A DNA stretch of 64,000 nucleotides. Source: a virus. Location: positions 3,256 to 67,255 of IMG/VR virus record IMGVR_UViG_3300002461_000777. The stretch is one strand, 5' to 3'. Below, in pieces: positions 12,797 through 59,716 of this stretch. The stretch's first letter is position 1. Each line of letters starts with the position of its first letter. The translations under genes and the position numbers were made by a program. The notes beneath the pieces were generated by a model that did not search any database, was not told the origin of the DNA, and saw only the letters and a list, made by a program, of their open reading frames with translations.

Positions 12797-12958
12797 ATGA
12801 CACAAATTGGATGGGTTCTCAAAAGTTTAACCACAGGTTACATTTCGACTAATGATATCTGGACAACAAAGGATCTAGCAGAACGTATGTTGGCTCATTA
12901 CAAGAAACGATGTCCAGATGTTAATTTTGAGTTGAAGCCTGTTTATGTAAAAGATTAA
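12797..12958 (+). CDS. hypothetical protein (53 aa, not in ORF track)
   Basis: GAGGAG RBS then MTQIGWVLKS... Confidence 0.55.
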   Translation: MTQIGWVLKSLTTGYISTNDIWTTKDLAERMLAHYKKRCPDVNFELKPVYVKD

Positions 12959-13347
12959 TTTTCGATAACCACAAAGGGACCGAAATTTCTCGTTTTGAAT
13001 CCAGATACTTTCAGGAGATTAACGTAAATTTCGGTCTTTCTGTTATCATGCGAAGCAACAATCAATTCCCCGAATTCATTCAACCAATTCTGGATTATCT
13101 CTTTGAATTGTTTCCGATTGAAATTGCCCAACTGTGAATTCCCCTTTTCACCCTGTTGTTGCAAGTCAGTGAAATCTTTTCCCTTTAATTGCATGGCGAT
13201 CTGATACATCTTCATCATCTTATTATACACCACAAACAATTCATAATCACCACATTCAGCTTCATCAGCCACAACATTTCCTGTAGCTTTTAGCAATTGT
13301 TCTGCTTTATCGGTCAGACCTTCTGCAAGGAAATCTTTGAATTTCAT
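12955..13347 (-). CDS. putative capsid-targeted internal protein
   Basis: MKFKDFLAE-G. Confidence 0.65.
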   Translation of the reverse strand: MKFKDFLAEGLTDKAEQLLKATGNVVADEAECGDYELFVVYNKMMKMYQIAMQLKGKDFTDLQQQGEKGNSQLGNFNRKQFKEIIQNWLNEFGELIVASHDNRKTEIYVNLLKVSGFKTRNFGPFVVIEN

Positions 13348-22712: not shown

Positions 22713-23969
22713 TTAAAGCAGGTTCGTGACTTTGGTAAGTCTGTAGAACGGATTGCTTGTCGGTGTGATGTCGCCAGTTGAGTTCGTGTAGAACGGATTG
22801 CTGACGAGACCATAACGAGTCTTGAATGCGATACGCGGAACGAAATTGTCCTGACCAGTTGCTCTCATCATCTGGAGCGGGACATAAGGACAATAAAAGA
22901 ATCCGGCATCGAACGGGTGAGCGCCCTTGTAACCGACCATCAGGAGTTCGTTACCAGCTGAATCCGAGAAGTAGGGGTCGATATAAACGCGGAACTGGTT
23001 GTTGAGCACACCAGCAAAGGTATTGCCAGTATCATCAACAGTCAGGTTGGTTGAGAGAGCAGGAGCGTAAGAAAGCATGCCTGAGGTAGCGAGGGCAGAT
23101 GCAACGTCTGACGAGCAGATGATGATGTTACCCTTACCGCGACGGGTCTTACGAGCGATCTCGTTAGCTTCACGATCAGCAAAGAACAAGAGACCCTTGA
23201 AGGTTTCTTCCATGTGACGACCGTTTGAGTCTACTGCCAAATTGAAGGTACCTGCAACAGCAGTATTCTTCTGTGCACCAGTCTGAGCAATGTAGTACAG
23301 AGTACGGACTGTTTCACGGTTGATTTCGGCCAAGATCTCTGAGCTTAACATTGTTGCCAATTCAGCTTCTGCATCCAGATTATGAATGCTCTTGAGATCC
23401 TGAGCGAGTTCGTGAGAGAATTCAGCTTTCAGGAAGCGAGTTCTAGCATTAACATTGACCTTGTCAATGGTGAGTGCCATTTCGCTAGGGGTAGCAAGTG
23501 CTTCAACCGCAGAGGTAGTGAAACCGTTACCAGTTGCAAAACCACCATCAAAGGGGCTTGAAGCAGCATGAGAACCAGTACCTGAGAAGTCGGTGTCAGC
23601 TTCGTTAAAGAGAGCTTCAGCACCAGCTTGGCTAGTATACTTGGAACGCATTGCAAAGATGATACCGTTGGGACCAGTCATTGCCTGAACGCCGCAAATA
23701 TCGTATGCCATCAAGTTGGGCATTGAACGACGCAGCAATCCAATGAGGACCGGATCAAAAGTAGCAACTGCTCCGCCACCCTGATTGTTCGCAGGTGCAG
23801 CTTCTGTGAGGAATGAGGAAGTGCCAATATTACCCAACATCTTTTCAGTGTTTTCGAATACCAGTGCTGTCGCAACACGCCGATTATGATCTTCAATCTT
23901 CCGGTACTTCGGGTGATCAAGAACTTGAGACCACTTTTCCAGAAGAACGTTAAAATTTTGACTTTCCAT
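22713..23969 (-). CDS. 23: major capsid protein
   Basis: LLEKW..VL, FDPVLI.L.RRSMPN.MAYDICGVQ.M.GP, ELAQDLK.IH.LDAE.EL, KTRRGKGN, GFFYCPYVPL, FKTRYG. Confidence 0.98.
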   Translation of the reverse strand: MESQNFNVLLEKWSQVLDHPKYRKIEDHNRRVATALVFENTEKMLGNIGTSSFLTEAAPANNQGGGAVATFDPVLIGLLRRSMPNLMAYDICGVQAMTGPNGIIFAMRSKYTSQAGAEALFNEADTDFSGTGSHAASSPFDGGFATGNGFTTSAVEALATPSEMALTIDKVNVNARTRFLKAEFSHELAQDLKSIHNLDAEAELATMLSSEILAEINRETVRTLYYIAQTGAQKNTAVAGTFNLAVDSNGRHMEETFKGLLFFADREANEIARKTRRGKGNIIICSSDVASALATSGMLSYAPALSTNLTVDDTGNTFAGVLNNQFRVYIDPYFSDSAGNELLMVGYKGAHPFDAGFFYCPYVPLQMMRATGQDNFVPRIAFKTRYGLVSNPFYTNSTGDITPTSNPFYRLTKVTNLL

Positions 23970-23998: not shown

Positions 23999-25081
23999 TT
24001 AAATTGGCAATTTGTCTAATGCCAATGCGTATTGTGACACGCGATCAACGGGCTTCTTAACTGTTTCTGTTGCTGGCTTATCATTGATAGCAGCTTCAGT
24101 CAGAGGCACTGATGTCGCAGAAGTGGACTTGCGAGTAAAATAACTTTCTTTCAATTGTTTAGCTTTTTCGCCAAATTCCTTGCGATTTGTGTATTCCACA
24201 TTCTCAAGCAAATCTCGCAGCTTAGCAACTTGGGTTGATGTCAAGCCTTCACGAAGTGACTGTACAACGGCTTCGCGCTTGCTGAGATTAACCTGTTCAT
24301 TCAACTCTCCGTTAAGTTTGATTTCGTTGTTCAAACGAGTTTCAAGTTTGGTAACCTGCTCTTCGAGTGTCTGTACTAAATCAACCTTATTGGCCGGAAC
24401 ATCAATGTAATGCTCTTCGAAAAGATTCTTCAGACGGGACATGAATGACTCTGACAATTCGGTACGGATACCTCGTTCGAGTTCAATCGTATGTTCCTTC
24501 TTCCAATTCTCAACAATTACATCAACATATTTGCCGACTTTGTTTTCGAGAATAGATTCATTTTCTTTGGCTTCTGCAATGTGACGATTGCGGTTAGCAA
24601 TCGCACGCTCGAACAGTCGCTTTGCATACTGACGCCGAATAGCGGTCGTATGTTCCTTGACTGACTTGCGAACAGCAGCTTCGAAAATTACACGTGCTTT
24701 TTCTTTGAAAGACTCATTCAGATCATCTTCCCCATCGAGCAATGCATCCATATGCTCCTTGACATCGATAGGCATTTCAGGATCTTCAAGTTCAGTATTT
24801 TCGTCTTCCTCATCGAGGTCCACTTCTACCGAATCTTCGTCTTCTTCTTCTAGTTCTTTCTTTTTGATATCGAAATCTTCGTCTTCCGTATCAGTTGCCA
24901 TTGGTGCGGTTGGTTCTTCTAAGCTAGTGCTGGCCTTGCTCTTAACCCCAGTAATGGGATTGGTAGCTTGAGGAGCCGTTGCTGAAGGAACGCCAATTTT
25001 CGGATCAAGGCCACTCGGAGCGGAAGGCACTTCAACAGGCCCACCAATATCCAAGTTTTCTTTCAGTTTCTTTTTATTCAT
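23999..25081 (-). CDS. 22: prohead core scaffolding protein
   Basis: ESFKEKA..IFEAAV, IELERGIRTELSESF...LK.LF.EHYI.VP; upstream of gp23. Confidence 0.92.
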   Translation of the reverse strand: MNKKKLKENLDIGGPVEVPSAPSGLDPKIGVPSATAPQATNPITGVKSKASTSLEEPTAPMATDTEDEDFDIKKKELEEEDEDSVEVDLDEEDENTELEDPEMPIDVKEHMDALLDGEDDLNESFKEKARVIFEAAVRKSVKEHTTAIRRQYAKRLFERAIANRNRHIAEAKENESILENKVGKYVDVIVENWKKEHTIELERGIRTELSESFMSRLKNLFEEHYIDVPANKVDLVQTLEEQVTKLETRLNNEIKLNGELNEQVNLSKREAVVQSLREGLTSTQVAKLRDLLENVEYTNRKEFGEKAKQLKESYFTRKSTSATSVPLTEAAINDKPATETVKKPVDRVSQYALALDKLPI

Positions 25082-25189: not shown

Positions 25190-27212
25190 ATGAATGCAAC
25201 AGATCTCAAAGCAGGAATGATTTTAGCTAAGAAAATTACTCAGTCTCCACAAGATGAAGATGCTCGTTTGATCATTCTTGACGTCCGAAAGAATGATCAA
25301 AACGATCTAACAGAAATTTTGGTCTGGGAACTTGGTATAAATGTTCTGGGTGGGTGGATACCCGCCGATTCGATTTTGTTTTTCTGGGAAGTCATAGCCG
25401 TACCAAGCACCCCACAGCCAACTCTTATTAGTAATATTCATGACTTGGAGGGATATCTATAATGATACTCTGGTACAACATTGAAGAATTACCTGCCGAT
25501 GGTAAGATCTATGATGGTGCAGATTGTGGTGCTGAACTGGTACGCCATATCCCGGCCACCGTCATGCATGTTGAACAATTACTTGCTTTGAAACCGGACG
25601 GGCTTCGTCGACGGATGCGTATACGGAATGGTAAATGGGGGAGTGCCGATCTCATTGGTGGGACGATTGGGGATACGAAATGATTTATCGGGTCTATTGT
25701 GATCATCGATATGTGGGTAGTGGCAGAACTTATGATGAGGCTGTCTTAATCTCTCTTAATTACGATGTCTACGAAATAATCGTGATTGAGACCACCACCA
25801 AAGATGCTCCTCTAGAATTGTCTCGAAGGAAACATACTGTTAGGTCAACACCAAAGACAAATGCAGAAGCTTTTAGAGTCGGTTTGTAAACATTACTTGA
25901 TCCGAAAGTTCAAACGTGGTAAAATTGTCTTATGATCACCTTTGAAGAAGCACAAGAAATGATGGTTATTACAGACCGTTTAAATGGCTTGATGTCATCC
26001 GAAGATTATGGCTACTATCTCGAAGCCAAGGGGGAAATCGAAGCCGAACGAGCCGTCGAGCGCTATTACGAGGATCGTGGTTGGCAAGAAGCTCTAATGG
26101 AGAGCTATGTTGAATCAGGATTCATTGCAAGGTTCTGATATGCCAAACTATATGAAAGCGGGGTTCTGATATGCCAAACTATATGAAAGCGGGGTTCTGA
26201 TATGCCAAACTATATGGAAGAAGCATTTGCTCCAGCCACAGCACAATATGCTTACGAAGTACAAAAAGACACTTGGGGCCATCTGGCTTTAAAACGCAAT
26301 CGCAAATACCATGGTCATATGATTTTCTCTCATGTCGGTTATGGTGGTCATCTTGCGATTATTTACTCCGAATGGAATGGTCTGGAGGATTCACCATGGT
26401 TGTATAATGCCATGGAAGAATTCGCCTTTGGCCTCTCGGGTAGTACTGATGATGTAGTTCAGGGTGCTGTGTATCGTTTTGATGGTATGGTGAGGAACTA
26501 TAAATTCGTTGGTACTCGCTCTGTACTTTACATGCCGAAGGGGATCGCTTAAATGGTTGGATCAATCGAAGAAAGAGGAACGAACTTGGGACAGAATGAC
26601 AAAGTCAGAATGATGCCAGTATTAACCAGCGGATATCAGAAATTGGGTTTCGTGGCTAAACTGGTTGACCAAAACGATAGTGATATCGCCTTCTTCAAGG
26701 ACTACAATATCGCCAACACCTTTATGGAATCGTATAACAAAAGGATTGATAATGACTCACGATGAAATGCTGAGTCAGAGGCAATTCAATTTTTATTGTC
26801 GTTTTGGTTTGAATCTAATATACCTGACTGTTGGTGTCGAATTGGATATAACCAAAATGAACGGTAAAAATGTTGCTGTTCGAGTTACTCCCCGATGGAC
26901 AACAACGAGATGGATGTCATCAGGATGGATGGGTAAAATTATGTTGGGTTTTCAGTTCGAGGTGCTACTGTCACAATGACTTCAACATTCGGTTTACAAG
27001 TAAATCTTGGTTATGTCGCCTTCGAAGTCGATATCTATTATTCTTCATTCTTCGCAGAGAAACTCCATCGCCGCAACAAATTTCAATTAATCCGAACTGA
27101 GACCGGGATTTGTTGTGGCAACAAAAACAATACACGTATCAATTTGCAAATGATAAAGCGGCCAAGGTGGATCTTTGGTGTAAGTTGCTTTACTTTAAGC
27201 CAGAACGATTAG
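25190..27212 (+). other. plus-strand island of about 9 small hypothetical genes inserted between genes 21 and 22
   Basis: ORFs 25190-25462, 25462-25683, 25680-25889, 25932-26138, 26202-26552, 26553-26765, about 26752-26979, 26976-27212 with coupled starts and stops. Confidence 0.7.
26131..26217 (+). repeat. 31-bp tandem repeat, about 2.8 copies, spanning a stop-start junction
   Basis: GGTTCTGATATGCCAAACTATATGAAAGCGG starting at 26131, 26162, 26193. Confidence 0.92.
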
Positions 27213-27892
27213 CTCAGTAAGTCGGTGAATCTCTTCAATTGATAGGCTGAAGCTGGCCGGGATATAGAATCCAAGAAATTACCGAATTCCTTGATCGCTA
27301 CTTCTTCCTTGAATTTCTTCTCGAAAGATTTCTTAACACTTTCACATTTTTGTTCAGTGAGAATTCCAGAATTCCAGACCCATTCTTTATTCTCGACAAT
27401 ACCACGAACGAATGCGTCCGGTGCTGATGGATCACCAACAATATCAGCTGCAGTGGTCAAATGGAAATCGTCTCCGACTACCGAGACACCGTTTTTCTCA
27501 GTGAGAGAACCCAAAGCACGACTCGATACACCCAATTTAACTTCTTCATCAATTAATACTTGAGCGATCTTGCCATAAGGCGTATCCATGACTTTAGCCT
27601 TGCCGATGAAGTCATTGCCTTCTTTGATCAGAGACTTGATGATGTGTGAAGATCTCTCAAAATTGATAGTGGCATTTTCTGGGTGTCCCAATTCACCGAG
27701 TGCTCTGTTTGTAACAATCATCTCCCTGTTATAACGGTTTACTTCAGCTTCCATTATCGCAAGAGGATAGACTCTACCATTCCGATTCGTCTTGTTGGAT
27801 TGTAGAAATACGCCCTCAATGTAATATGACTTTTTGCCATTTTTCATCGTGGGTGTTACAAGAGCTTGATTATACTCGGTGATGAGTTTCAT
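27209..27892 (-). CDS. 21: prohead protease
   Basis: MKLITE, YIEGVFLQS...NRNGRVYP, ALGELGHP, GVSSRALGSL, DIVGDPSAPDAFV. Confidence 0.97.
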   Translation of the reverse strand: MKLITEYNQALVTPTMKNGKKSYYIEGVFLQSNKTNRNGRVYPLAIMEAEVNRYNREMIVTNRALGELGHPENATINFERSSHIIKSLIKEGNDFIGKAKVMDTPYGKIAQVLIDEEVKLGVSSRALGSLTEKNGVSVVGDDFHLTTAADIVGDPSAPDAFVRGIVENKEWVWNSGILTEQKCESVKKSFEKKFKEEVAIKEFGNFLDSISRPASAYQLKRFTDLLS

Positions 27893-27911: not shown

Positions 27912-28412
27912 TTAGATTATACCCAATGACAAAGCTGCTTTTGCTTTTTCGATATGTGCCGCCACATCGTTATGAGCAATATACTGCATAGGGAATCCGT
28001 CATAGCAGTGGATACAATCTTTGGTCTGACCCAACAGTAATTGGTGTTTCTTGTTTTTCTTGAAAGTGAAGGATTTGGAATCAGGGCATTTTTCCAAATC
28101 CTCATCTTCCATCCAAGATTCATTCAATTTCCCATTTAAATGAATATGAAGAGAATTAGCATCGACTCCTGCGACATTACTCTCAGGCATAGACCACATA
28201 TTGTTTTCAGGAAACAAACCATCACCATTGGCAGCGACAAGCAATCTTTCTGGTCCTTTCTGGAATTCCAGAATGGGTTGATTTGCGGTTGCTGGAATGA
28301 CTAGCTTGAAACCATTTGTTTCAGCCTCAGATGCCACAGCAGCGAAAGAGCCTACTGGATATACGATATCCTCAGCTTCTTTCAGGAGTGATTTAATTCT
28401 TCTTATATTCAT
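27912..28412 (-). CDS. head-region protein, possible prohead-core or internal protein
   Basis: Between gp67 and gp21; MNIRRIKSLLKE-A and internal LNE-S resemble gp21 sites. Confidence 0.55.
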   Translation of the reverse strand: MNIRRIKSLLKEAEDIVYPVGSFAAVASEAETNGFKLVIPATANQPILEFQKGPERLLVAANGDGLFPENNMWSMPESNVAGVDANSLHIHLNGKLNESWMEDEDLEKCPDSKSFTFKKNKKHQLLLGQTKDCIHCYDGFPMQYIAHNDVAAHIEKAKAALSLGII

Positions 28413-28769: not shown

Positions 28770-30347
28770 TTATCCGTTGGGTCCAGCGCCAAAAGTAGTG
28801 GGTAATGGAATCTCATTATTTGGAGATTCGTCGTCCGATGTCTCTACACCATCAGCACCACCGGGGTCCATGCCGTCGACTCCCCCACCACTTTCTAGTT
28901 TGATTTTATCTTGTTCTTCCTTGATTTGATCTTCAGTAAAGTACATCACATTCTTTGAAACGTATTCTTGACTGTATAATTTCCCCGCAAATTCCATAGC
29001 ATCACGTGCTAATGTGATACGCTCACGCATAATCTCCATGTCATTCAATTGGCTAAAGTATGTGTCTTGTGCCCATCTAAAGCGGATCTTTTGTTTAACG
29101 TCTTTCCATTCATCAACAGTTATCACACCCTTCATTATCAGTTGTACCCTAAGCACTTGAAGAAGGATATCGACGAATTTATTTCTTAGGCTGCTAACGA
29201 ATTTACCGAATTTGTATTCTTCTCTCGAAATTTCAGAAGCTCTACCGATACCACCAAAGGGATTATCAGCTTTTAGACGAGACAATGGAACGTTGAGAGA
29301 ATTGTATAGTTTCTGGGAGAACCAAGAAAGCTGTTCGATCATGTCGCTGAAAGAATTACCACCCTGAAGCTGCTGCACTTCGGTGCTTTTTCCATCACGA
29401 CGAGCGAACCAGAAATCCTCCATCATTGAAAGGTGACGTTTCTCATCTTTCACCTCACCAGTAACCGGATCGTAAGCGATGTTGTTACGATACTTTGCAG
29501 CTTGTTCCTCAATATGCTTGGTAGCCTGACCACGCGGCAAATTACCAACATCGATATAGAAAATGCGCCGTTCCGGTGCACGAGAAATTTTATAAATTAC
29601 GGTTGCATCCTCCATCATGTTCAACATGTTTAGAGGCTTAATTGCCTTATGCAAATATGAGCAAATTAGACCAGATTTAGCATCAGTACGACCAGAATGA
29701 ATGTAAGCAATCGAATCCGGTGCTAAAGCCACACCCTCGAATTTTGTGCCGGGTGTGGCCATGTTGTTTTGATCATAAGTGAAGTATTCTTGATATTTCT
29801 CGATATACTGAATGTTCGCATCATTGATTGCTACTGTTTCTTTGCGAACCTTCCTCATTTTTCTGGGGTCAATATATCTAAGTTCTTGGACGCCTTCTTC
29901 CGGTTTTGCCGGGTCGACGACGATATAGAAATAAAGCCTTGCATCAACATACCATTTACGGAACATATTTTGAGCTTCTCTATTGAATTCGAGAAGATCT
30001 AATACTCTAGTGAAGTTATCTTTAATTTCTTCTTTGACTTCATCCGGGAATTCCAGCAAATCCAGATTTAATGAAATCGGTTCTAACTCATCGAGAACAA
30101 TAGCTTCATTTACGATTTCTTGGATAGCTGTATCAATTTCTGCTTGATCTGCCATGATCCGATAACGATTAATCAGATCTACTTCAGATGCTCCAGAGAA
30201 GTCCATATTAATATATGTTGACATTGAATCAACATAGGAGGTGGTGCCGTCTTCATTCGGGAGACCAACAATATTCCTGCTATTGTCAATCTTTTTGTCC
30301 TTTACGAAGGTAAATCCAAATAATTTAAGAGCCATAGTGGTGTGCAA
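28770..30347 (-). CDS. 20: portal vertex protein
   Basis: FRKWYVDARLYF, ELRYIDPRK, SYLHKAIKP, RAPERRIFYIDVGNLP, MMEDFW..RR, YNSLNVP.SR. Confidence 0.98.
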   Translation of the reverse strand: MHTTMALKLFGFTFVKDKKIDNSRNIVGLPNEDGTTSYVDSMSTYINMDFSGASEVDLINRYRIMADQAEIDTAIQEIVNEAIVLDELEPISLNLDLLEFPDEVKEEIKDNFTRVLDLLEFNREAQNMFRKWYVDARLYFYIVVDPAKPEEGVQELRYIDPRKMRKVRKETVAINDANIQYIEKYQEYFTYDQNNMATPGTKFEGVALAPDSIAYIHSGRTDAKSGLICSYLHKAIKPLNMLNMMEDATVIYKISRAPERRIFYIDVGNLPRGQATKHIEEQAAKYRNNIAYDPVTGEVKDEKRHLSMMEDFWFARRDGKSTEVQQLQGGNSFSDMIEQLSWFSQKLYNSLNVPLSRLKADNPFGGIGRASEISREEYKFGKFVSSLRNKFVDILLQVLRVQLIMKGVITVDEWKDVKQKIRFRWAQDTYFSQLNDMEIMRERITLARDAMEFAGKLYSQEYVSKNVMYFTEDQIKEEQDKIKLESGGGVDGMDPGGADGVETSDDESPNNEIPLPTTFGAGPNG

Positions 30348-38212: not shown

Positions 38213-38483
38213 AGAAGCTTTTAGATCTAGAATGACAAAATACATGAGATGTCTTAGTACTGGCATTTCGACAGAATATTTTTGGCCTATTGAACTCGAT
38301 TCATTGGAACCCCAACATGCAGCATTATTCTCATATCATTACTTAAAAGGCATGGATTGGAAATTGTGTTGCACGAAAATGGGATTAACTCAGCCAGAAT
38401 TTATCAAATTGCTTGAAGAGACACAAGAAAAAATTGGTGCCATACTAAATAGGATTGACCATGAAATTCAAAGAATTCGTTAA
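38202..38483 (+). CDS. hypothetical protein with C-terminal HTH-like segment
   Basis: LF.YHYL.G.DWKLCC..MGL. Confidence 0.55.
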   Translation: MTNKEAFRSRMTKYMRCLSTGISTEYFWPIELDSLEPQHAALFSYHYLKGMDWKLCCTKMGLTQPEFIKLLEETQEKIGAILNRIDHEIQRIR

Positions 38484-38757
38484 CGAAAAAGCATTGATTA
38501 AAGAAGATGCTGAAAAAGTTGTTACATCAGAATATCTCCGTTCTTACATAAAAGAACATGGACGAGAGCATCTGGAGATGTATGTGGCATCGGTGCAAGC
38601 ACAGAATGCTAGCACCAAAGAACAGGATATGTATGATTATTTCCATGGTGGTGTCTTGGGATCTACTCAAATGAAAAATGACGAATTAATCAGTACAGCA
38701 GCCTTCTTCGCGGCTAATATGGAAATTGCGGATTTCTTAGAAATCGTTAATTCCTAG
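38461..38757 (+). CDS. putative capsid-targeted internal protein
   Basis: MKFKEFVNE-K; TAAATA at 38446-38451. Confidence 0.7.
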   Translation: MKFKEFVNEKALIKEDAEKVVTSEYLRSYIKEHGREHLEMYVASVQAQNASTKEQDMYDYFHGGVLGSTQMKNDELISTAAFFAANMEIADFLEIVNS

Positions 38758-38769
38758 AGACAATTGACT

Positions 38770-39099
38770 ATGAAATTCAAAGAATTCCTGACAGAATCAT
38801 CCGGTGAAGGCTCTCAAAAGAGGGCTTATGATTCGAAAGTAAAGATAACTGTCGAGAAGAAAGCCGATGAGCTTTCTATTACAGTGACTGACAATCCACC
38901 ACATCGTCACGCACCAAATGGTCTGACAGCGCCATCATTGAGTAAGGCGGAAGCCAAAAAATTAACTCAAAACGAAGAAGATTTGGCAGAATGGGTGACA
39001 GAACATCTTTTGTCATTCACACCAAGTTTAACAATCAGACAAGAAGATCAAATGTTTGAGGATCTTGTCGATATTGTAGAGAAATTCGCAAGAGAATAA
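38770..39099 (+). CDS. putative capsid-targeted internal protein
   Basis: MKFKEFLTE-S. Confidence 0.7.
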   Translation: MKFKEFLTESSGEGSQKRAYDSKVKITVEKKADELSITVTDNPPHRHAPNGLTAPSLSKAEAKKLTQNEEDLAEWVTEHLLSFTPSLTIRQEDQMFEDLVDIVEKFARE

Positions 39100-40331: not shown

Positions 40332-40889
40332 TCAGACTTTTTCAATGAAGACTTCGTAGAAATCTTTGGATGGAATAGCTTGAGTTTTTCTTTTTCGAAT
40401 TAAATCAGCACCCAAAGTAGCATGGAGGAGTCTCCTGTATGTTTGATTGGATACAAGATTCCATCCACCATTCTCTTTGATGATTTCACTTGGTTTGGGA
40501 TCGAAATGACACCAAATATCGCCCTCATAACGGAATTTACGGTAGTTTGAATGACGAATTGCGACCCATTTGTCTTTAATCACCGTAGTCCTACGTGATT
40601 CATCCTTACCATATTCATCCCATTCTGGATGATCTTGATCAAGTCTTTTGCCATCTGAACCTTTGATTATCTCCATCCTTCTTGGGTCAAAATTAGCTCC
40701 GAGGAGATATGGTTCTGTGGCTTTAATGGGAAATGCATAAATTCCACGACGGGCTGGTGGATGGTGGGCAGTGGGCATAGACGAGTCATAACCCCTTTGA
40801 TTAACGGAACTCAGACCACCCCATCTTACAAAAGTGCTGTAAAGGACTTTGTTATCAATAGATTCTGCTAAAAACTCTCGAAGGGTCAT
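40332..40889 (-). CDS. putative capsid-targeted internal protein
   Basis: MTLREFLAE-S; H.PPARRGIYAFP domain. Confidence 0.65.
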   Translation of the reverse strand: MTLREFLAESIDNKVLYSTFVRWGGLSSVNQRGYDSSMPTAHHPPARRGIYAFPIKATEPYLLGANFDPRRMEIIKGSDGKRLDQDHPEWDEYGKDESRRTTVIKDKWVAIRHSNYRKFRYEGDIWCHFDPKPSEIIKENGGWNLVSNQTYRRLLHATLGADLIRKRKTQAIPSKDFYEVFIEKV

Positions 40890-45183: not shown

Positions 45184-46539
45184 CTAAAGGGAACTTCTTC
45201 TAGTCGACACTTTATCGAAATTGCTCAAAGCATCAGTGACTGATTCGAAATCGAACATTCTGTCGGGGAGGGTAAAGTCACCATCGGGTCTTTTTAAGTG
45301 GATGATAACATCTTTCTTGGTTCGTTCACCGAATTTCTGAATAACCTTATCGACAGCTTTGATGTGTTTGGGAATATCCAGAGCATCAATCATCAGACCA
45401 CCATCGGCAGTTAAGACCCATCTAAAATAGTCATTCTCCATTGCATGATGGGTAGCTTGATAGGGATCTTTGATTCCGGGGAGACTTCTATTTGCTAAGG
45501 AGTCATGATCGTCCTTTCGCGGGTTGCCTGTTAAGAGCTTGTCAGTGAAGGGATTATAGAAACCAAAATCCTTGTAAAAATCCCTCTCAATCAGGAAATC
45601 TTCATCGAGAATATCTTGGACTGATTTATCATCTCGCCACATCTGACAAGACCAATATTTGGCTGTAGTCTTGTCTTTCGCTTTGTCACAACCATGTCTA
45701 GCGCGGAAGGATTTTCTTCGAGCAGGGTCATCACGTTTAATTTCCATATTTGGGTCACCAAAATCCACCTTGACGATATTACCAGTGTCCGGATTCTTGA
45801 CATTTACTCGAAACTTCTTAGTCCCACCACGGAATGGCTTGTTTAACGATACTTCTTCTTCGAGGGTCTGATTCAATGATTTTATCGCTGTCTCCGGATC
45901 TCCTACATTGATCGAAAGAGAATGTCCACGTCTAATATCACCTTTAGTATACAAATCAACGACGATTCTTTTATCAGTACCTTTAATGAATTTAATGATG
46001 TTTTTGATAACAGAGGGGGATTTTACAGCTTCAATTCCGATAGCTTCACCTGTGTAATAAAACCTGATATAAGATTTTACTAGAGCATTAGTAACAGTCT
46101 TCAGACCAAGGCGTAATGCAATATCATCATGCATATCATCGTATCGTTGATCGGCTGAAATGATATTGCCGTTGGGTGAGATGAAGCCAAAGTCTTGATA
46201 GAAATCCATGGCCTCATTTAATGGATCTGTATATACAAGAATAGGATTAAGGCGTCCAGCATTACCACCAGTACCCGCATCTGGTGAATTCACAAATAAA
46301 CTAACTTTGCGCGGCAATTTGGACTGATTGGGCTTCATCAATTTCAAAAGACGAGGACCATTCTCTTTCCAAACTTTCTTAGCTGCATCCTCTCTGGATG
46401 AAGCTTTTATTTTCCATTGTTCAAAATCCTCTTGTCCAATCTTTTTGCTAGAGGAATTTGGGAAATATGATTTGGAAATGAAAACATGGTATAATTTGTT
46501 GCTTGCTTCTTCATTCAAGAATTGTGAGAAATTGGACAT
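45184..46539 (-). CDS. multi-domain capsid-targeted protein (putative polyprotein)
   Basis: MSNFSQFLNE-E; internal LNE, LEE, LDE, LIE junctions; duplicated DFY.DFGF domain; FGDPNMEIKRDDPARRKSFRARH.C domain. Confidence 0.7.
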   Translation of the reverse strand: MSNFSQFLNEEASNKLYHVFISKSYFPNSSSKKIGQEDFEQWKIKASSREDAAKKVWKENGPRLLKLMKPNQSKLPRKVSLFVNSPDAGTGGNAGRLNPILVYTDPLNEAMDFYQDFGFISPNGNIISADQRYDDMHDDIALRLGLKTVTNALVKSYIRFYYTGEAIGIEAVKSPSVIKNIIKFIKGTDKRIVVDLYTKGDIRRGHSLSINVGDPETAIKSLNQTLEEEVSLNKPFRGGTKKFRVNVKNPDTGNIVKVDFGDPNMEIKRDDPARRKSFRARHGCDKAKDKTTAKYWSCQMWRDDKSVQDILDEDFLIERDFYKDFGFYNPFTDKLLTGNPRKDDHDSLANRSLPGIKDPYQATHHAMENDYFRWVLTADGGLMIDALDIPKHIKAVDKVIQKFGERTKKDVIIHLKRPDGDFTLPDRMFDFESVTDALSNFDKVSTRRSSL

Positions 46540-49954: not shown

Positions 49955-50460
49955 ACTTTAGTGGCTTTTGATTGCCTACGCCTCCTGCTTCGAGGAGGGT
50001 AACGGGGACCGGAATACCCATTATTGGGGACTATGGATACTAACAGAAATAATCAAAAGCCAAATTCGAATCGAAAGGCATAAATATTATCATGGAATTT
50101 AAAACTTTTCTAAATGAAACCAGCGATGAACCAACACACGAGGCCAATGGTTATCATACTATTAAGGAAGATATGTTGGGTACTCCGGTGGATCTAGAAA
50201 AAGGAACTTTGATTTGTTACAGGACGAATCAAGCTTTAGGTGTCGGATTGTTAATTGCTATCGACGGTCAAATGGAAATTTTCACTGCACCTAAACTGGG
50301 ACGTTACACACATTCCAAAGAATCATTAACAAATCCAACAAAAGTCATCAAGATAAATAGTTGGCCACAATTCTTCGACAGGAATTTCCTTGTACTAAAG
50401 AATCCAAAAATAGAAAATATATTTCGTGGATTGGTGCCATAAAAGCCAAATCTAGACTTT
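49950..50460. mobile_element. inserted cassette flanked by 10-bp direct repeats with short inverted repeats
   Basis: TCTAGACTTT at 49950-49959 and 50451-50460; TGGCTTTT left and AAAAGCCA right; internal AATCAAAAGCCA at 50051-50062. Confidence 0.55.
50092..50442 (+). CDS. putative capsid-targeted internal protein
   Basis: MEFKTFLNE-T; TAAATA at 50081-50086. Confidence 0.7.
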   Translation: MEFKTFLNETSDEPTHEANGYHTIKEDMLGTPVDLEKGTLICYRTNQALGVGLLIAIDGQMEIFTAPKLGRYTHSKESLTNPTKVIKINSWPQFFDRNFLVLKNPKIENIFRGLVP

Positions 50461-50704: not shown

Positions 50705-50780
50705 TGGAGCCGTCCGACAGGATCGAACTGTCGACCTCCTATTTACAAGACAGGCGCTCTACCAACTGAGCTAGGACGGC
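50705..50780 (-). tRNA. trnT: tRNA-Thr(UGU) with encoded CCA
   Basis: GCCGTCC acceptor, D-arm GCTCAGTTGGTAGAGC, anticodon arm CCTGT-CTTGTAA-ATAGG, T-loop GTTCGATC, ends CCA. Confidence 0.97.
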
Positions 50781-53974: not shown

Positions 53975-54076
53975 TTGTGATAATTTCCTTTGATAGTATT
54001 TATAAGCAATTATATACGAATATTATTGACATATAATTGAGAATGTGCTATAATCAAAATTCAGGGAGAAATTAAC

Positions 54077-54373
54077 ATGTTAACCGCACATATGAATCAT
54101 CAAATCGAGTCTGAAGGAAATTTTGACCAAGAAATTGATGAAATTCTGTATTCCCAAGATCATCAAATATTATCCGAACTCGAATGCCATTTTTGTAAAT
54201 CACAATTACATGAAAATAACAATGTCATGACTCGATGCATGAGCAATCAAGAACTTGCTCCACGAGGGATGGGATGGGTATCTGTTATTGTTCAACCATT
54301 CCGAGAAGTTCCCTGTTGTGATATTTGTCTGGAAAAACCCGATGACCAACTACAAGGTCTCCTGATGGTATAA
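54077..54373 (+). CDS. hypothetical zinc-binding protein
   Basis: CHFC and CCDIC; GGGAG RBS. Confidence 0.55.
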   Translation: MLTAHMNHQIESEGNFDQEIDEILYSQDHQILSELECHFCKSQLHENNNVMTRCMSNQELAPRGMGWVSVIVQPFREVPCCDICLEKPDDQLQGLLMV

Positions 54374-54480: not shown

Positions 54481-54879
54481 ATGTCTTTCCTTCGATTTCT
54501 GACTGAATCCAAACAAATTGAGTCATTTATGACCGATCTTAAACAGAAATATGGAAATAAGTCGGATCGTTTTACACTAGAAATAAACAGGAAAGAAGTA
54601 GCATCTTTCATTGTCGGCGAGAGAGAAGGGCGAATAAGACTCCGTGGATTGGATTCTCACGAGAAACGTCAAGGGTATGCTAGCCAAATTCTCAAAAATC
54701 TTACTGAGTTGGCCGACAAATATCATTTAGTAATAGAATTGACTGCTTCACCCCATGGTGATGAAGAAACTAGGATGAATCACGAACAACTACAGAGTTT
54801 CTATTCTAAATTTGGCTTTGAAATGGAAGAAGGTTTTGACCCGTCTTACGGCTATATGATTCGTAAACCTAAATATTAG
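54481..54879 (+). CDS. GNAT acetyltransferase, capsid-targeted
   Basis: MSFLRFLTE-S; KRQGYASQIL acetyl-CoA motif A; L..FYSKFGF. Confidence 0.82.
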   Translation: MSFLRFLTESKQIESFMTDLKQKYGNKSDRFTLEINRKEVASFIVGEREGRIRLRGLDSHEKRQGYASQILKNLTELADKYHLVIELTASPHGDEETRMNHEQLQSFYSKFGFEMEEGFDPSYGYMIRKPKY

Positions 54880-54880
54880 A

Positions 54881-55693
54881 GTGACCTTTTTACAGTTCTT
54901 AACTGAATCCGATGAATTTGTGTTAGCTTGGAATGCTTATACCAACAAGAATCCCAAGGCTGAACCAATACCATCACAATACAAGAGATTTTCTAAAATA
55001 TCTTCCAAAAAACCTCCTAAGGGGATCCTTCGTGGGTGTTATCATAATTCCATGAAGAATTTTCAAGAAAATAATCTCAGAATGGTCGTGGGATTGGCTG
55101 TGCCAGTGAGTGATGCCGAACATCTCTTGAGAACTGGTGAGATGAGTTGGAATCCGAAATACCGTGGGTATGACCATGCTTGGAATATAGATGATTCGGG
55201 TGCTATAATAGATTCAACTTATGAAAATCCAAAAGATTTTCGGTATTATGGATTCGTAGTACCAACTGTCACAGCAAAAAGTTTTAAAGTAGATAATGAT
55301 GTCATGAATTATGTTCATCAAATTAATGGTGCTCATGATAAAGATAGAGCTAAAGTAGTCTTTGGCGAGCATCCCAAGAAATTGGTGAATATTCAAGAAC
55401 CATTGCCTGAGCCATTCAAAAGTGTTTTGGATAGCAAAAAATTTATCTTCCATAGTTCATCACATGATAAAAATCAAATTAATTATCTCTATATCAAGAA
55501 AGGTGATAATGGCATTAAAGTCACTTTAAGATATAATTCAAAAACCAAAAAGATAGAACATATCTACCAAGAATCCATCATTCACGATAAAAGATCCAAC
55601 ACTAGTGGGCCGGGGAAAGTGAAAAGTTGGTTTGGTGATAACAGTTGGTATAATTGGTCTAACAACGTCAAACCAGACAGGAATGCCTACTAA
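54881..55693 (+). CDS. papain/transglutaminase-like (Cys-His-Asp) protein, capsid-targeted
   Basis: MTFLQFLTE-S; GCYHNS...DHAWN.D...IIDST...YYG. Confidence 0.6.
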   Translation: MTFLQFLTESDEFVLAWNAYTNKNPKAEPIPSQYKRFSKISSKKPPKGILRGCYHNSMKNFQENNLRMVVGLAVPVSDAEHLLRTGEMSWNPKYRGYDHAWNIDDSGAIIDSTYENPKDFRYYGFVVPTVTAKSFKVDNDVMNYVHQINGAHDKDRAKVVFGEHPKKLVNIQEPLPEPFKSVLDSKKFIFHSSSHDKNQINYLYIKKGDNGIKVTLRYNSKTKKIEHIYQESIIHDKRSNTSGPGKVKSWFGDNSWYNWSNNVKPDRNAY

Positions 55694-55695
55694 AT

Positions 55696-57045
55696 ATGAC
55701 TTTTTCTCAATTCCTTTTAGAATTCAACTGTTCTACCGATCGGCTAGTGACTAAATCAGAAATTGATGCATTAGAAAGATACCTCGACCAAGTCTGGGCA
55801 AAAGCTGGTATCGACGTCGATTTCACCAAGCACTTCATCGATCGAATCAACGACAGTAGGAACATTAAGCAAATTACGGTTTGTGACGTTCAAAACATCT
55901 TTGATCAAGCCTTTAAGAGATATTCAGATAAATTCGCTAAACAAAAAGTTGATTTCCAAGCTGTTTTAAAATCAGTATCCACAGCTATCAATATCCCATT
56001 CATTCTTGATTCAAAAGATGGCCAACTGACTCTTATCAACAAAACGATTATGAGGAAGAAGGACTTTAAATCTGATGACAGAATCTTTACCGTTGAATCT
56101 GCTAATTATCAAGGCTATAAAATGTGGGGTTTCATTGACAAAAATGGTGATTTGATAGAGGGTACACCCAATGATAATTACCACGATGATATAGCTATCG
56201 AAGCATTCGGTTGCTATACTGATGAAGCGGTGATCAAACGTAAAGCTATCAGATTCGCACAGATGACTGATGCTGGTTGGTTGATATCTTTAGAGACTTT
56301 AGCTCTCAAAAACCTCAAAGAATTAGATCATTTCATAGAAAAACATGACGATGTTTATGTTGATATATTGAAGAATGGTAATCTCATCAAAGCATTTGAA
56401 GATAAATGGGTCAACGTTCTCAAATTAACACAAAAGCCTTATAGAGACAAATTCTTGGCTGAATCCAATTATTACAGATACAATTATGATATAGATCCCG
56501 GAGCCGATCCTCTGTCACAACGTTATGCCAGATATAAAAATCTTTTTCAAAAGGGTAAAGAAGATCCTAACAAATTACCTAATATACAAGTTTTGCAAAT
56601 GGCGAGGCCCATTAAAGATGAACAATGGGCAAGAATTTTCCGAAAGAGATTTAATGTAGCTCAACGTAAATTCAAAGCAGCTAATCCAAAATATTATATC
56701 AAAAGAGAGAATCATCTTGCTGGTACGGCTGATTGGAATGGCAAAATTTATACGGAAGATAATGAATTAGTCGGGTCGTTTTATTTGAATGTTTATAAAG
56801 TCAAAGAGACAGATAAACTAATTGGTTATATAAATTCAATAGCGAAATGGATACCCAATTCACACAAAGCGGATTGGAAGAATGAATCACCCCATAAAGG
56901 GCTACTCACTCATGTAATGAAGCTTTGGATGGAACAGATAAAAGATGATGTCAGTGTAATAATGTTGGATGTTGGGAATTTATCTTATTGGGCACATTTC
57001 TTCAACAAATATTACCCGAATGTCACAGTATTGGATACGGATTAA
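55696..57045 (+). CDS. multi-domain capsid-targeted protein (putative polyprotein)
   Basis: MTFSQFLLE; internal TVE-S and FLAE-S; FTKHFIDRIND domain, WGFI..NG..YHDDIA domain, GNAT-like C-terminus. Confidence 0.65.
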   Translation: MTFSQFLLEFNCSTDRLVTKSEIDALERYLDQVWAKAGIDVDFTKHFIDRINDSRNIKQITVCDVQNIFDQAFKRYSDKFAKQKVDFQAVLKSVSTAINIPFILDSKDGQLTLINKTIMRKKDFKSDDRIFTVESANYQGYKMWGFIDKNGDLIEGTPNDNYHDDIAIEAFGCYTDEAVIKRKAIRFAQMTDAGWLISLETLALKNLKELDHFIEKHDDVYVDILKNGNLIKAFEDKWVNVLKLTQKPYRDKFLAESNYYRYNYDIDPGADPLSQRYARYKNLFQKGKEDPNKLPNIQVLQMARPIKDEQWARIFRKRFNVAQRKFKAANPKYYIKRENHLAGTADWNGKIYTEDNELVGSFYLNVYKVKETDKLIGYINSIAKWIPNSHKADWKNESPHKGLLTHVMKLWMEQIKDDVSVIMLDVGNLSYWAHFFNKYYPNVTVLDTD

Positions 57046-57365
57046 TCTTCGATTTTAACCAAGAATTCTGGTTCTTTACATACACCAATACGCTCAAGAT
57101 TATCATCTAATCTGGTGAAATCAGTCCATATTTCACCTTCGAAAGACGGATGATTGGGGATTGTGACACCTTGCGTTTTCAAAATATCGAGAAAATAATA
57201 TCCACCAACCAGTGTATGCCAATAAGTACCTCTTGTCTGTGATTTGATGATCAAATAACAATCCATTTCATCTTCAGCATATCCAATCAAACGACAGACT
57301 TCTGTGCCTATCAAAATTGGTTCATTGAAATGTGATTTAATCTCATCGTGGTATTTTTGTATCAT
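57042..57365 (-). CDS. hypothetical protein
   Basis: 107-aa ORF. Confidence 0.6.
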   Translation of the reverse strand: MIQKYHDEIKSHFNEPILIGTEVCRLIGYAEDEMDCYLIIKSQTRGTYWHTLVGGYYFLDILKTQGVTIPNHPSFEGEIWTDFTRLDDNLERIGVCKEPEFLVKIED

Positions 57366-57368
57366 GTT

Positions 57369-57971
57369 TTAGTCCCATTCCTGAGAAACAATTTCGGCAG
57401 TCCAAATCCTCAATGATTCTTCTGGTTTAATATGAATCGGAATACCATTAAAGTAATCGCCATTCTTGAATATTTCGGGATTAGGATTAACTTTTATTTT
57501 AGTGTTCCTAGGTAGCATTCTCTCGGATTCTTTCTCAATAGATTTTTTCGAGAGGTCAGCAGCATATTGCCCTTTTTTCGCCTTGATCGCTAGTATATCA
57601 GCAGGGATTAATGGTTCGCCGGGTTTAAGGTAACTATTTACGCGCCAAGAGCCACGTATTGCAAAGATCGTCGCTACAGAGAGTTCCTCAGATGTCGATA
57701 AGAATGATGGGAAATGAATAATATTGTTAGAGTCCATCATCTCAGTAGGATCATGTCTCAATCCAGAATAGAGCCAAGTGTTTTTGGTGAGGATATTCTT
57801 TCTTGCGATTTTATCCAAAGCCGCCAAATCATGCTTATCGATCTTAGATGGTGGTTTAGTTCCATCCTTATGATGTTGCCAAAGAGCTTGATTCAAATTC
57901 TGAGACATATCAGTGTAACGTTTGATATGCGATTTTTGAGTTTCTTCATCCAGAAATCGAGCAAAGGTCAT
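57369..57971 (-). CDS. ADP-ribosyltransferase (Alt/Mod/VIP2-like), capsid-targeted
   Basis: MTFARFLDE-E; YT..S..LN..L, LYSG, FLSTS, EKESERMLPRNTK (R/S-S-E type). Confidence 0.82.
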   Translation of the reverse strand: MTFARFLDEETQKSHIKRYTDMSQNLNQALWQHHKDGTKPPSKIDKHDLAALDKIARKNILTKNTWLYSGLRHDPTEMMDSNNIIHFPSFLSTSEELSVATIFAIRGSWRVNSYLKPGEPLIPADILAIKAKKGQYAADLSKKSIEKESERMLPRNTKIKVNPNPEIFKNGDYFNGIPIHIKPEESLRIWTAEIVSQEWD

Positions 57972-58447
57972 TGTCTCTCCCAATTCAGCCCAAATTTTTT
58001 GGCCAGTGCTTCCCAAACAGCATCATTGGTGGATACATGAACACCCATATTCATATCCAATTGTATTTTTTCTTTATTATCGACCAACCATTTAAGACCA
58101 ACTGAGAAAAGCCCTCTTTTTTGCCAGCTTTTGGGTATTTCTGAATCACCGATATGAATATGGGTCCCAATGAATTTCCCGTCATCATCGAATCTTGGAA
58201 CTAAAACAATCGACAAGAAAACTTGTCCTTGAGATGTTAAACTATTCACCGTTATAATAGCTCTATACCACTCACTATGCCAATAATACCTAGATTTCGA
58301 TGGACCCTTGGTAAATGGTTCTGCATCAGGATCAATTTCCTTAATTTTTACCCACCACGCCTCATAAAGACCTTTGGCACCAAACATCAAAAGATCTTTA
58401 TATGGAGTTTCGTCCGCTGATTCTTGAAGGAATTGAGCAAGAGTCAT
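57968..58447 (-). CDS. GNAT-like protein, capsid-targeted
   Basis: MTLAQFLQE-S; IP..WQKRGLF motif A-like. Confidence 0.55.
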   Translation of the reverse strand: MTLAQFLQESADETPYKDLLMFGAKGLYEAWWVKIKEIDPDAEPFTKGPSKSRYYWHSEWYRAIITVNSLTSQGQVFLSIVLVPRFDDDGKFIGTHIHIGDSEIPKSWQKRGLFSVGLKWLVDNKEKIQLDMNMGVHVSTNDAVWEALAKKFGLNWERQ

Positions 58448-58770
58448 TAACTAGCAGATTCCTTACTCATTTCTTTTTCAGCTGCATCAGCCATAACCAG
58501 CAGACCAGCAGCATATTTACGAGCTTCCATCGGTGTAAAAGAATCTTTAGGAACCTTAATAGGCTTATCACCACCGAATTGTGATTGGATTAGAGAGCCA
58601 CCTTTTTCAATGGGTTCGACATTCAAATATTGAGCCTGTTTAGTCTCATCGTCATTATGATAAGAACTATCAACCGCGATATTCTTGACCATATGTTTGA
58701 AGTCACTCAAATGAGTATCTAACCAAGAGGTAGATTCAACAGCTTCTTTTAAGAATTCAGCGAATTTCAT
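58447..58770 (-). CDS. putative capsid-targeted internal protein
   Basis: MKFAEFLKE-A. Confidence 0.7.
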   Translation of the reverse strand: MKFAEFLKEAVESTSWLDTHLSDFKHMVKNIAVDSSYHNDDETKQAQYLNVEPIEKGGSLIQSQFGGDKPIKVPKDSFTPMEARKYAAGLLVMADAAEKEMSKESAS

Positions 58771-59088
58771 TTACTTTGCCTTCTCTGCATCAAATTTCTT
58801 CAAATATGTTTTCACTTTTTGGAAACTATCAAAATCTCCACCATCTTTATCATTCTTACCAAAGACAAAGAAAGTTTCTGCCCCATTTCCAGCACGAAGG
58901 AACTCCACTGTTAACTTACGAGTAGGGTCGATATAACTATAATCAAATTCTTCGTTACCCTTGTTCCATTTTTTCTTTTCTTTAGTAAAACCGTTGTTTT
59001 TAAGCCATTCTGCTGCTTTCAATTCGGTCTTAGATCTAGTCTCTTTGGTTTTATCAACAGCTTCGCTCAAGAATTCTTTGAATGTCAT
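58771..59088 (-). CDS. putative capsid-targeted internal protein
   Basis: MTFKEFLSE-A; TAAATA at 59097-59102. Confidence 0.7.
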   Translation of the reverse strand: MTFKEFLSEAVDKTKETRSKTELKAAEWLKNNGFTKEKKKWNKGNEEFDYSYIDPTRKLTVEFLRAGNGAETFFVFGKNDKDGGDFDSFQKVKTYLKKFDAEKAK

Positions 59089-59149: not shown

Positions 59150-59716
59150 AGCTTCAGATTCCGTTCACAGGTTCTTTAAGACCCGGCAAGGCTAAGCAGC
59201 CATTGCAAGCTGACCATAGTTAGTGGCAGTTATAGTTTTACGCTATTCATTGTGACTATCAAATTCAACAACCACAACCAAGTAGTCGTCTACTTGTAGA
59301 CATTCCCCTTACCCTAATAACTTCCGATCGAAACCATGACGCCCCCACCAAACCACTCAGCAAAATCTTTGCTTTTGTAATCAACGCTGCTAACATTCTT
59401 TCATGACTTATGAGGTCAATGAATGCAGACACCGTACTAGAAATGATGAGTCTCTAGTCCGTCTGAGTGGTTTGGTGGAGGCGGTGGGAGTCGAACCCAC
59501 GTCTCAAAAGCTTTACTCTCAGGCTCTGAGATTAATTCACACCGTCCTCTAAATCCAACTTCCTGCAATCATATGGCCATATGATTGCTCAATAGCCAAT
59601 TTTTACTGGGACTTTAGTGGAGGATCGAACTCCTTTGAGGAAACCTAGATTTACTGATGATCCGGCCTTGAACCATCTAACCTAGTGACCCAGAGGACGG
59701 GATGAATTAATCTCGC
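59150..59716 (-). ncRNA. ssrA: two-piece (circularly permuted) tmRNA
   Basis: T-arm/acceptor GTGGGTTCGACTCCCACCGCCTCCACCA ends 59473, upstream of 5' end GGGGGCG at 59346; G3-U pair; resume motif ATAACT-GCC; tag ATNYGQLAMAA* at 59227-59192. Confidence 0.92.

Follow-up and report, generated by a model that had tools for sequence, protein, structure and literature searches.

What does it mean when many otherwise unrelated genes of one uncultured, water-borne virus begin with nearly the same short peptide? The question is raised by the window analysed here, a stretch of 64,000 nucleotides that covers bases 3256–67255 of a single 69,949-bp virus contig without a terminal repeat (IMG/VR record IMGVR_UViG_3300002461_000777; positions below are those of the window unless the contig is named). 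An original prediction, made from the letters of the window, had listed 15 genes, several of them clustered at 54.5–59.1 kb, whose products open with the tag M-x-F-x-x-F-L-x-E, and had compared this tag with the capsid-targeting sequence (CTS) of bacteriophage T4, MKTYQEFIAE (PMC8442874). We find that 16 genes of the contig carry the tag, that the tag corresponds to the T4 CTS residue by residue at the positions that matter for its function, and that it is probably the version of the CTS used by this phage, so far found on one ADP-ribosyltransferase (ART), on further candidate enzymes and on many small proteins.

A shared N-terminal peptide on unrelated genes

All 15 of the listed tags were found at the genes named. 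For the minus-strand genes the low end of the open reading frame (ORF) had served as coordinate, and their start codons lie at 7205, 13347, 40889, 46539, 57971, 58447, 58770 and 59088. Applied to ATG starts over the whole contig, the regular expression ^M.{1,3}[FL]..F[LIV].E gave 15 matches, each opening at least 98 codons and 14 of them standing at ORF heads, to be compared with a mean of 0.47 matches and a maximum of 2 in 30 order-2 Markov shuffles. A chance origin of the tags was rejected on this difference, together with the single IMG/VR locus matched by a scrambled pattern (see below). The remaining match, MKTLDLFLGE at 15648, lies 170 codons inside a 927-residue ORF and is treated as coincidental. 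This ORF (13351–16134, minus strand) has a VgrG3-like C-terminal domain (PF21277, E = 6.5e-36) and probably encodes a tail-associated cell-wall hydrolase. The tagged set of 16 comprises the 14 matches at ORF heads, the gene at 54881, which begins with GTG, and a variant copy starting at 7205; the 16th gene, added to those already listed, lies just beyond the window, at contig base 2540 (MTFGEFLKE, 143 residues). Tag carriers thus make up 16 of about 121 ORFs (~13%).

Four positions of the tag are near-invariant: Phe stands at position 3 in 14 of the 16 copies (Leu in two) and at position 6 in all of them, Leu at position 7 in 15 (Val in one) and Glu at position 9 in 15; positions 2, 4, 5 and 8 are freely variable. 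The nine-residue form is found in 15 of the 16 copies. In the variant copy at 7205, Ser replaces the Glu and L-K-E follows three residues on. Past residue 12 the tagged proteins are mutually unrelated by BLASTP, except for a module common to the proteins of 451 and 449 residues (E = 7e-5), and common ancestry of the tagged genes was rejected for this reason. The DNA beneath the tag is also diverse, with Leu7 encoded by TTG, CTG, CTT, TTA and CTA, Phe by both its codons, a mean pairwise nucleotide identity of 61% between tags and a median longest shared run of 6 nt. As Leu7 is encoded by five codons, selection on the tag acts at the level of the protein, and these figures together make a purely nucleotide-level signal unlikely. 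Public gene calls place the starts of 54881 and 54481 at an internal Met, giving products of 203 instead of 270 residues and of 116 instead of 132; such calls remove the tag, so that automated annotation can hide it.

Correspondence with the capsid-targeting sequence of T4

The spacing of F3, F6, L7 and E9 (i, i+3, i+4, i+6) is that of Y4, F7, I8 and E10 in the T4 CTS, one residue nearer to the Met. In T4 internal protein III (IPIII), scanning with amber suppressors assigned residues 4 and 7 to targeting and residues 8 and 10 to processing (PMC9026906); the CTS of IPII and IPIII is credited to Mullaney and Black (1996), as cited in PMC9026906 and PMC8442874. As in IPII and IPIII, the peptide follows directly after the Met, has the order aromatic-x-x-Phe-aliphatic-x-Glu and stands on unrelated cargo; the two differ in length, with ten residues in T4 and nine in 15 of the 16 copies described here.

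Used on T4 (169 kb) as a positive control, the same expression found three starts, those of IPII, IPIII and gp61.1. The last of these is a hypothetical protein of 54 residues encoded beside the primase gene (NC_000866, 18966–19130, minus strand), with the CTS-like N-terminus MKTFKEFIKE. The phages HTVC008M, Melnitz, DLP_6, phiN3, S-BM3 and S-SKS1 have 0–2 such starts each, about the level of a reversed-pattern control. Sixteen tagged genes in 70 kb, against three in the whole of T4 and 0–2 in these relatives, amount to a real expansion. The claim of a larger payload therefore holds for the number of tags, and its other half, the packaging itself, would follow by analogy.

Like T4, the window phage encodes an S77 protease, a gp22 core protein and a gp23 with the T4 cleavage site (the arrow marks the bond after the last Glu here and below). 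The gp21-type prohead protease (27209–27892, minus strand; 227 residues, N-terminus MKLITE↓Y) matches PF03420 Peptidase_S77 at 1.2e-37 and phrog_207 at 3e-72, and its gene has TAAATA 5 nt upstream. The gp22-type scaffolding core protein (23999–25081, minus strand; 360 residues; phrog_237 at 1.6e-64) contains VPLTE↓A close to its C-terminus. In the gp23-type major capsid protein (22713–23969, minus strand; 418 residues; phrog_138 at 4e-132) the propeptide ends with SSFLTE56↓A57, which confirms the FLTE-A that had been noticed there; when the protein is aligned with T4 gp23, whose propeptide of 65 residues (PMC9026906) ends at the identical site, all six residues of SFLTEA are the same in both. 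Since the gp23 cut site is shared with T4, the window protease would be expected to cut F-L-x-E, which is how the tag ends. A short gp23-like segment is also found in a 264-residue fusion protein (2591–3385, minus strand), where residues 59–109 match PF07068 (E = 4e-6) and the phage's own gp23 (E = 9e-11) and are joined to a NADAR domain (PF08719, E = 4e-44).

Late promoters upstream of tagged genes

The presence of TAAATA late-type boxes before many tagged genes, another element of the original prediction, was borne out by counting: 7 of the 16 tagged genes have the box no more than 15 nt before the start, as against 10 of the 105 untagged ones (Fisher p = 0.0017), and the same operons, of two to four genes each, contain five more tagged genes in downstream positions. 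The untagged genes with this box are head and tail genes, among them those of the protease, of a candidate core protein (see below) and of a Gp80-like head protein; the portal, scaffold and capsid genes have it 15–27 nt upstream. Late expression is known for the T4 internal proteins and is read here from the TAAATA link in the sequence.

Unlike the situation in T4, many tags stand 5–9 nt behind the late promoter box. Examples are the genes starting at 27892, 46539, 50092, 54481, 54881 and 7205. As no Shine-Dalgarno sequence is visible in so short a space, many late mRNAs, including that of the protease, may be leaderless or nearly so. The plus-strand operon of the cluster at 54.5–59.1 kb is separated by a hairpin and a T-run from an upstream early gene of sigma-70 type. 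At 54026–54373 (plus strand), a perfect TTGACA-17-TATAAT with extended TG precedes an untagged, Cys-rich ORF of 98 residues.

The tag in other phages and metagenomes

A degenerate DNA pattern for MKFKEFLxE, searched in IMG/VR alongside a scrambled peptide of equal degeneracy, was found at 57 loci, 53 of them at ORF heads, against one locus for the control. Among the cargo at these loci are DUF6267 proteins, fusions of a cytidylyltransferase with a kinase, and numerous small unknown proteins. All four tag-bearing records with a completeness of 50% or more encode Peptidase_S77, as do five of the ten larger records tested. A complete 360-kb S77 jumbo phage (G002) has 16 tagged genes, 11 of which are paralogs of about 200 residues with MKFKQ/EF/YLxE starts, located at 281–298 kb and at 347.6 kb; their column identity is 0.77 in the tag versus 0.29 over the remaining residues.

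The only full-length ortholog of the 270-residue cluster protein (P0038, 44% identity) begins MLSFQQFIVE↓SDDFVLAWN, in the ten-residue geometry of T4. It is encoded on an independent metagenomic contig (L116), which also encodes a T4 gp2 homolog and on which two tagged genes are adjacent (3–515 and 520–1353); the gene just upstream of the ortholog begins MKYYQEFLIE↓A, identical to T4 at seven of ten residues. Ten-residue forms as in T4 are thus found in relatives of the window phage. Since this upstream gene is unrelated to the upstream gene of the window, the comparison suggests cassette exchange between related contigs.

Homologs of the N-terminal domain of the 449-residue cluster protein occur in other metagenomic proteins, some of which start at the domain itself, without a tag; others open with related peptides, such as MINSFKLYLEE or MKNFKSFIKE, before different domains. 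Judged from these alignments the tag is an add-on to its cargo proteins, because the cargo is unrelated past residue 12 and the untagged homologs begin at the domain.

Proteins encoded in the 54.5–59.1 kb cluster

The cluster consists of two convergent late operons, and Megablast against cultured phages gave no match to it. The original prediction had seen in it an ART, two or three GNATs and a Cys-His-Asp enzyme. The ART is confirmed by a family match above the cut-off; the three GNAT-like domains are leads only, with Pfam matches below the cut-off or with language-model and structural look-alikes, and the Cys-His-Asp enzyme is a possible candidate.

The ART gene (57369–57971, minus strand; 200 residues, MTFARFLDE↓E) scores 26.0 bits with PF03496 (cut-off 23.4), a family also assigned in the precomputed annotation. 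PHROG matches are to RNA polymerase ADP-ribosylase and to Alt-like families, the similarity to the latter being weak (E = 0.006). The residues R72, S92-T-S94 and E148-x-E150 follow in the canonical order, with a short R-to-STS spacing, and a weak match to C3larvin aligns ESERMLPRNT with QYELLLPRNT. The longest ORF reaches back to a TTG at 58016, but the ATG that opens the tag is at 57971, and a matching product of 200 residues has been called in other assemblies of this phage. A related-locus search in IMG/VR found no relatives of the ART, and a search for homologous proteins returned only the ART itself.

The plus-strand operon opens with a GNAT-like gene (54481–54879, plus strand; 132 residues, MSFLRFLTE↓S), in which the hairpin and T-run are followed by a TAAATA whose end is 6 nt from the ATG. 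Its product matches three GNAT families of Pfam (E = 3.5e-4 to 0.016), all below cut-off, and phrog_14082 at 1.4e-8. The following gene (54881–55693, plus strand; 270 residues, MTFLQFLTE↓S), with TAAATA 5 nt upstream, has a GTG start that is supported by the tag kept in the 44%-identical ortholog. In the N-terminal domain of its product, the single full-length ortholog retains Cys54, and all three aligned sequences share His99 and Asp111; the possible assignment as a Cys-His-Asp enzyme is based on the conservation of the three residues in that ortholog. The AlphaFold2 model, built from a three-sequence alignment, has pLDDT below 50 for residues 1–172 and of 72–92 for residues 173–270, a beta-rich C-terminal domain that is confidently modelled; the nearest named Atlas cluster is Tox-PLDMTX, with a score of only 0.81. 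The third gene (55696–57045, plus strand; 449 residues, MTFSQFLLE↓F; phrog_23027 at 8e-18) encodes a widespread N-terminal domain of ~115 residues, the middle module common with the 451-residue protein, and a GNAT-like C-terminus (residues 305–449, TM 0.52–0.62 to GNAT clusters of the Atlas). An internal KFLAE↓S lies at residues 253–258, and a related-locus search of IMG/VR with this protein found no relatives.

The minus-strand operon begins with a gene (58771–59088, minus strand; 105 residues, MTFKEFLSE↓A) that has TAAATA 8 nt upstream and encodes a basic protein (23% Lys plus Arg). Its neighbour (58447–58770, minus strand; 107 residues, MKFAEFLKE↓A), whose start overlaps the stop of the upstream gene, belongs to no known family in Pfam or PHROG. 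The GNAT-like gene that follows (57968–58447, minus strand; 159 residues, MTLAQFLQE↓S) was recognised by Atlas matches, with feature scores of 0.92–0.96 to viral GNAT clusters and structural TM values of 0.45–0.59; it has no Pfam match, and its single-sequence AlphaFold2 model is unusable (mean pLDDT 44.6). Beyond the ART, the operon ends with an untagged gene (57042–57365, minus strand; 107 residues, N-terminus MIQKYHDEIK) without a family in Pfam or PHROG. Directly upstream of the operon lies a permuted two-piece transfer-messenger RNA (59192–59534, minus strand; Rfam RF04321, 82.9 bits versus a gathering score of 47), for which ARAGORN reads the tag peptide ATNYGQLAMAA.

Tagged genes elsewhere and the origin of the contig

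Outside the cluster, the variant copy with the N-terminus MSFVQFLKSLKE (6765–7205, minus strand; 146 residues) has TAAATA 6 nt upstream and no family in PHROG or Pfam. Further along lie the genes at 12366–12773 (plus strand; 135 residues, MKFAEFLNE↓T) and 12955–13347 (minus strand; 130 residues, MKFKDFLAE↓G), the latter with TATATAAAT directly upstream. The gene at 38461–38757 (plus strand; 98 residues, MKFKEFVNE↓K), with TAAATA 9 nt upstream, is directly followed on its 3' side by that at 38770–39099 (plus strand; 109 residues, MKFKEFLTE↓S), and a gene at 40332–40889 (minus strand; 185 residues) has the N-terminus MTLREFLAE↓S. The largest tagged protein (45184–46539, minus strand; 451 residues, TAAATA 6 nt upstream) begins with MSNFSQFLNE↓E, which has one extra residue. 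Its residues 228–311 form a very widespread domain of 85 residues, starting LNKPFRGG, which has a match in phrog_7595 and a weak one in DUF5754. It recurs at 50–75% identity in 3,815 representative proteins that differ greatly in length and architecture, and 9 of the best 150 relatives begin with CTS-like tags. A last gene (50092–50442, plus strand; 116 residues, MEFKTFLNE↓T) has TAAATA 5 nt upstream. Nearby, a tRNA-Thr (TGT) was detected at 50705–50780 (minus strand) by ARAGORN and Rfam. Apart from the ART, the GNAT-like proteins and the Cys-His-Asp candidate, the tagged proteins gave no family in Pfam and PHROG searches, and about ten of them are small proteins in which no enzyme fold is recognisable.

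The head module further includes a gp20-type portal protein (28770–30347, minus strand; phrog_213 at 5.5e-163). Between the portal and protease genes lies an ORF of 166 residues (27912–28412, minus strand; N-terminus MNIRRIKSLLKE↓A) that matches no family among PHROG and Pfam profiles; because of its position and of a TAAATA 8 nt upstream, we regard it as a candidate prohead core protein in the position of gp67/68. Among cultured phages the capsid protein is most similar to that of Pelagibacter phage HTVC008M (57.6%), followed by those of T4-like phages of 140–250 kb from Methylophilales, Stenotrophomonas, Sinorhizobium and cyanobacteria, which makes it most likely that the contig is part of the genome of a distant myovirus of T4 type. 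The identical sequence is present in the activated-carbon filter metagenomes of PRJNA301005 and in several further runs, SRR28154515–30 among them.

Discussion

A number of observations lead us to regard M-x-F-x-x-F-L-x-E as, in all probability, the window phage's version of the T4 CTS: the geometry of the tag, the S77 protease, the gp23 site, the late-promoter link and the orthologs with tags of T4 length. This part of the original prediction is well supported; packaging, cleavage after Glu9 and injection of the tagged proteins would follow by analogy with T4. According to the model that we propose, the tagged proteins would be made late in infection, alongside the head genes, and F3 and F6 would mediate their docking to the prohead's scaffolding core, which is built on gp22. 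The gp21-type Peptidase_S77 would then cut after Glu9, at L-x-E, just as F-L-T-E↓A marks the cut site in gp23, and the mature cargo would stay in the head with the DNA, to be ejected, probably, into the next host, as are T4 IPI–III and Alt. This cargo would comprise one ART, three GNAT-like domains, possibly a Cys-His-Asp enzyme, and some ten small proteins whose fold is unknown. That it is injected and acts on the host has, by the same analogy, about an even chance.

The closest parallel to the ART is T4 Alt, a head-packed ART that is cleaved by gp21 (PMC9026906). Both are ARTs of T4-type phages with a late-type gene, an N-terminal L-x-E propeptide and an ExE-type catalytic motif; they differ in size (200 residues here, 682 in Alt), have the weak Alt-like PHROG similarity given above, and carry different leaders, an IP-type tag here and the propeptide MELITE in Alt. 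Whereas the T4 internal proteins are small and basic, the cargo described here includes enzymes and acidic proteins. Giant phages of the phiKZ and SPN3US types also hold many head-internal proteins, from which a related prohead protease removes propeptides after Glu (PMC9026906), but their genomes are unrelated, the motif is S/A-x-E, the propeptides are long and no short N-terminal address peptide is shared. Enzymes with an anti-restriction or modifying function are likewise delivered inside the capsid in phage P1, whose DarB has an N-terminal packaging signal (PMC9024508), and in the systems of MuF-fused polyvalent effector proteins (PMC9503650). The P1 signal is of ~30 residues and is not reported as a protease-removed L-x-E peptide, the MuF systems use a domain fusion, and neither signal resembles the tag in sequence. 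ARTs packaged in the head have been proposed in a survey of viral NAD-ADP-ribose systems, where the proposal relied on gene neighbourhood and on fusions to MuF or portal proteins, not on a short tag (PMC9503650). In T-even phages, diverse proteins with CTS-like sequences have been described, and the CTS may be an evolutionary loading mechanism (PMC9026906; PMC3012670). The mechanism being known from T4, and its use as a loading device having already been proposed in a T4 review, the advance lies in scale and in the enzyme cargo, not in principle; the literature searched contained no paper on a short CTS across many enzyme genes in distant T4-type phages.

Taking all the observations together, one may go further and propose an address code that is common to a lineage of S77 phages, with interchangeable forms of nine and ten residues, and that in the window phage loads at least 16 swappable cassettes, mostly from near-leaderless transcripts. 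With an ART, three acetyltransferase-like domains and multi-module precursors, the payload would be richer than in any characterised T4-type phage. We put the chance of this joint proposal, its cargo included, just short of even.

Several points weigh against the CTS reading and its extension. The phage is uncultured and the reading is drawn from sequence, and the six cultured distant relatives have 0–2 starts each, so that proteomic data cannot be transferred from them. The co-occurrence with S77 is not assessable in most of the short IMG/VR fragments, five of which, at 8–28% completeness, are uninformative. The peptide is not exclusive to S77 phages, since on another contig (L019, 5355–6623, minus strand) an HK97-type capsid protein (PF05065) beside an S78 protease starts with MKFKEFLTE. 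Three or four tagged genes have no recognisable TAAATA, and the one at 12366 stands instead behind a TATAAT box, as non-structural genes do. The T4 internal proteins are basic, whereas several of the cargo proteins here are acidic, and sixteen cargo species, two of them of ~450 residues, would compete for a limited core volume.

The acidic proteins bear on the principal alternative as well, in which the tag does target proteins to the core and is cut there, and the proteins act during assembly, as core fillers, size determinants or chaperones, and are degraded or expelled before the DNA is packaged, with no delivery of effectors. T4 gp22, gp67 and gp68 enter the core and are destroyed by gp21 (PMC9026906), scaffold proteins are acidic as several of the tagged proteins are, and the ten small tagged proteins without a recognisable enzyme fold would suit such a role. 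Yet a further [LI]-x-E-[ASGT] site is absent from most of the small tagged proteins, which argues for a single cut, as in the T4 internal proteins, and not for shredding; the ART and GNAT-like enzymes have no obvious part in assembly, and the known ART parallel in T4, Alt, is an ejected protein. We therefore consider the assembly role rather unlikely.

The tag might also be a removable propeptide or sorting signal that serves another end, such as the silencing of a toxic enzyme, localization to a membrane or compartment, or stability. It forms a short amphipathic helix in both AlphaFold2 models (H3–8 and H3–11, at low confidence), a toxic cargo such as the ART would gain from a pro-form, and the packaging of the cargo in the head is itself read by analogy. 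A generic stability or membrane signal, nevertheless, predicts neither the match with the T4 CTS at just those positions to which functions have been mapped, nor the likeness to the gp23 cut site, the link with head-gene promoters or the co-occurrence with S77, and such a function appears quite unlikely. It is highly improbable that the peptide is a by-product of a nucleic-acid element, either the start region of near-leaderless late mRNAs or a homology cassette for gene shuffling. The close TAAATA boxes without a Shine-Dalgarno sequence mean that the first codons could matter for initiation, and the differing neighbours among related contigs recall cassette exchange; against this stand the codon diversity and low nucleotide identity of the tags, as well as their presence on translationally coupled genes inside operons and, in IMG/VR, behind unrelated upstream sequences.

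If the tag works as the CTS does in T4, the proteins that uncultured T4-type phages carry into the next cell would be predictable from sequence, and, should the broader proposal be true, the whole set of packaged and injected effectors could be listed from a genome or metagenome. The shorter form would also offer a second natural CTS for the engineering of protein delivery. For the biology of these phages, the list would directly name candidates for anti-defence and host take-over functions, the majority with an unknown fold, that would act in the first minutes of infection, before any phage gene is expressed.

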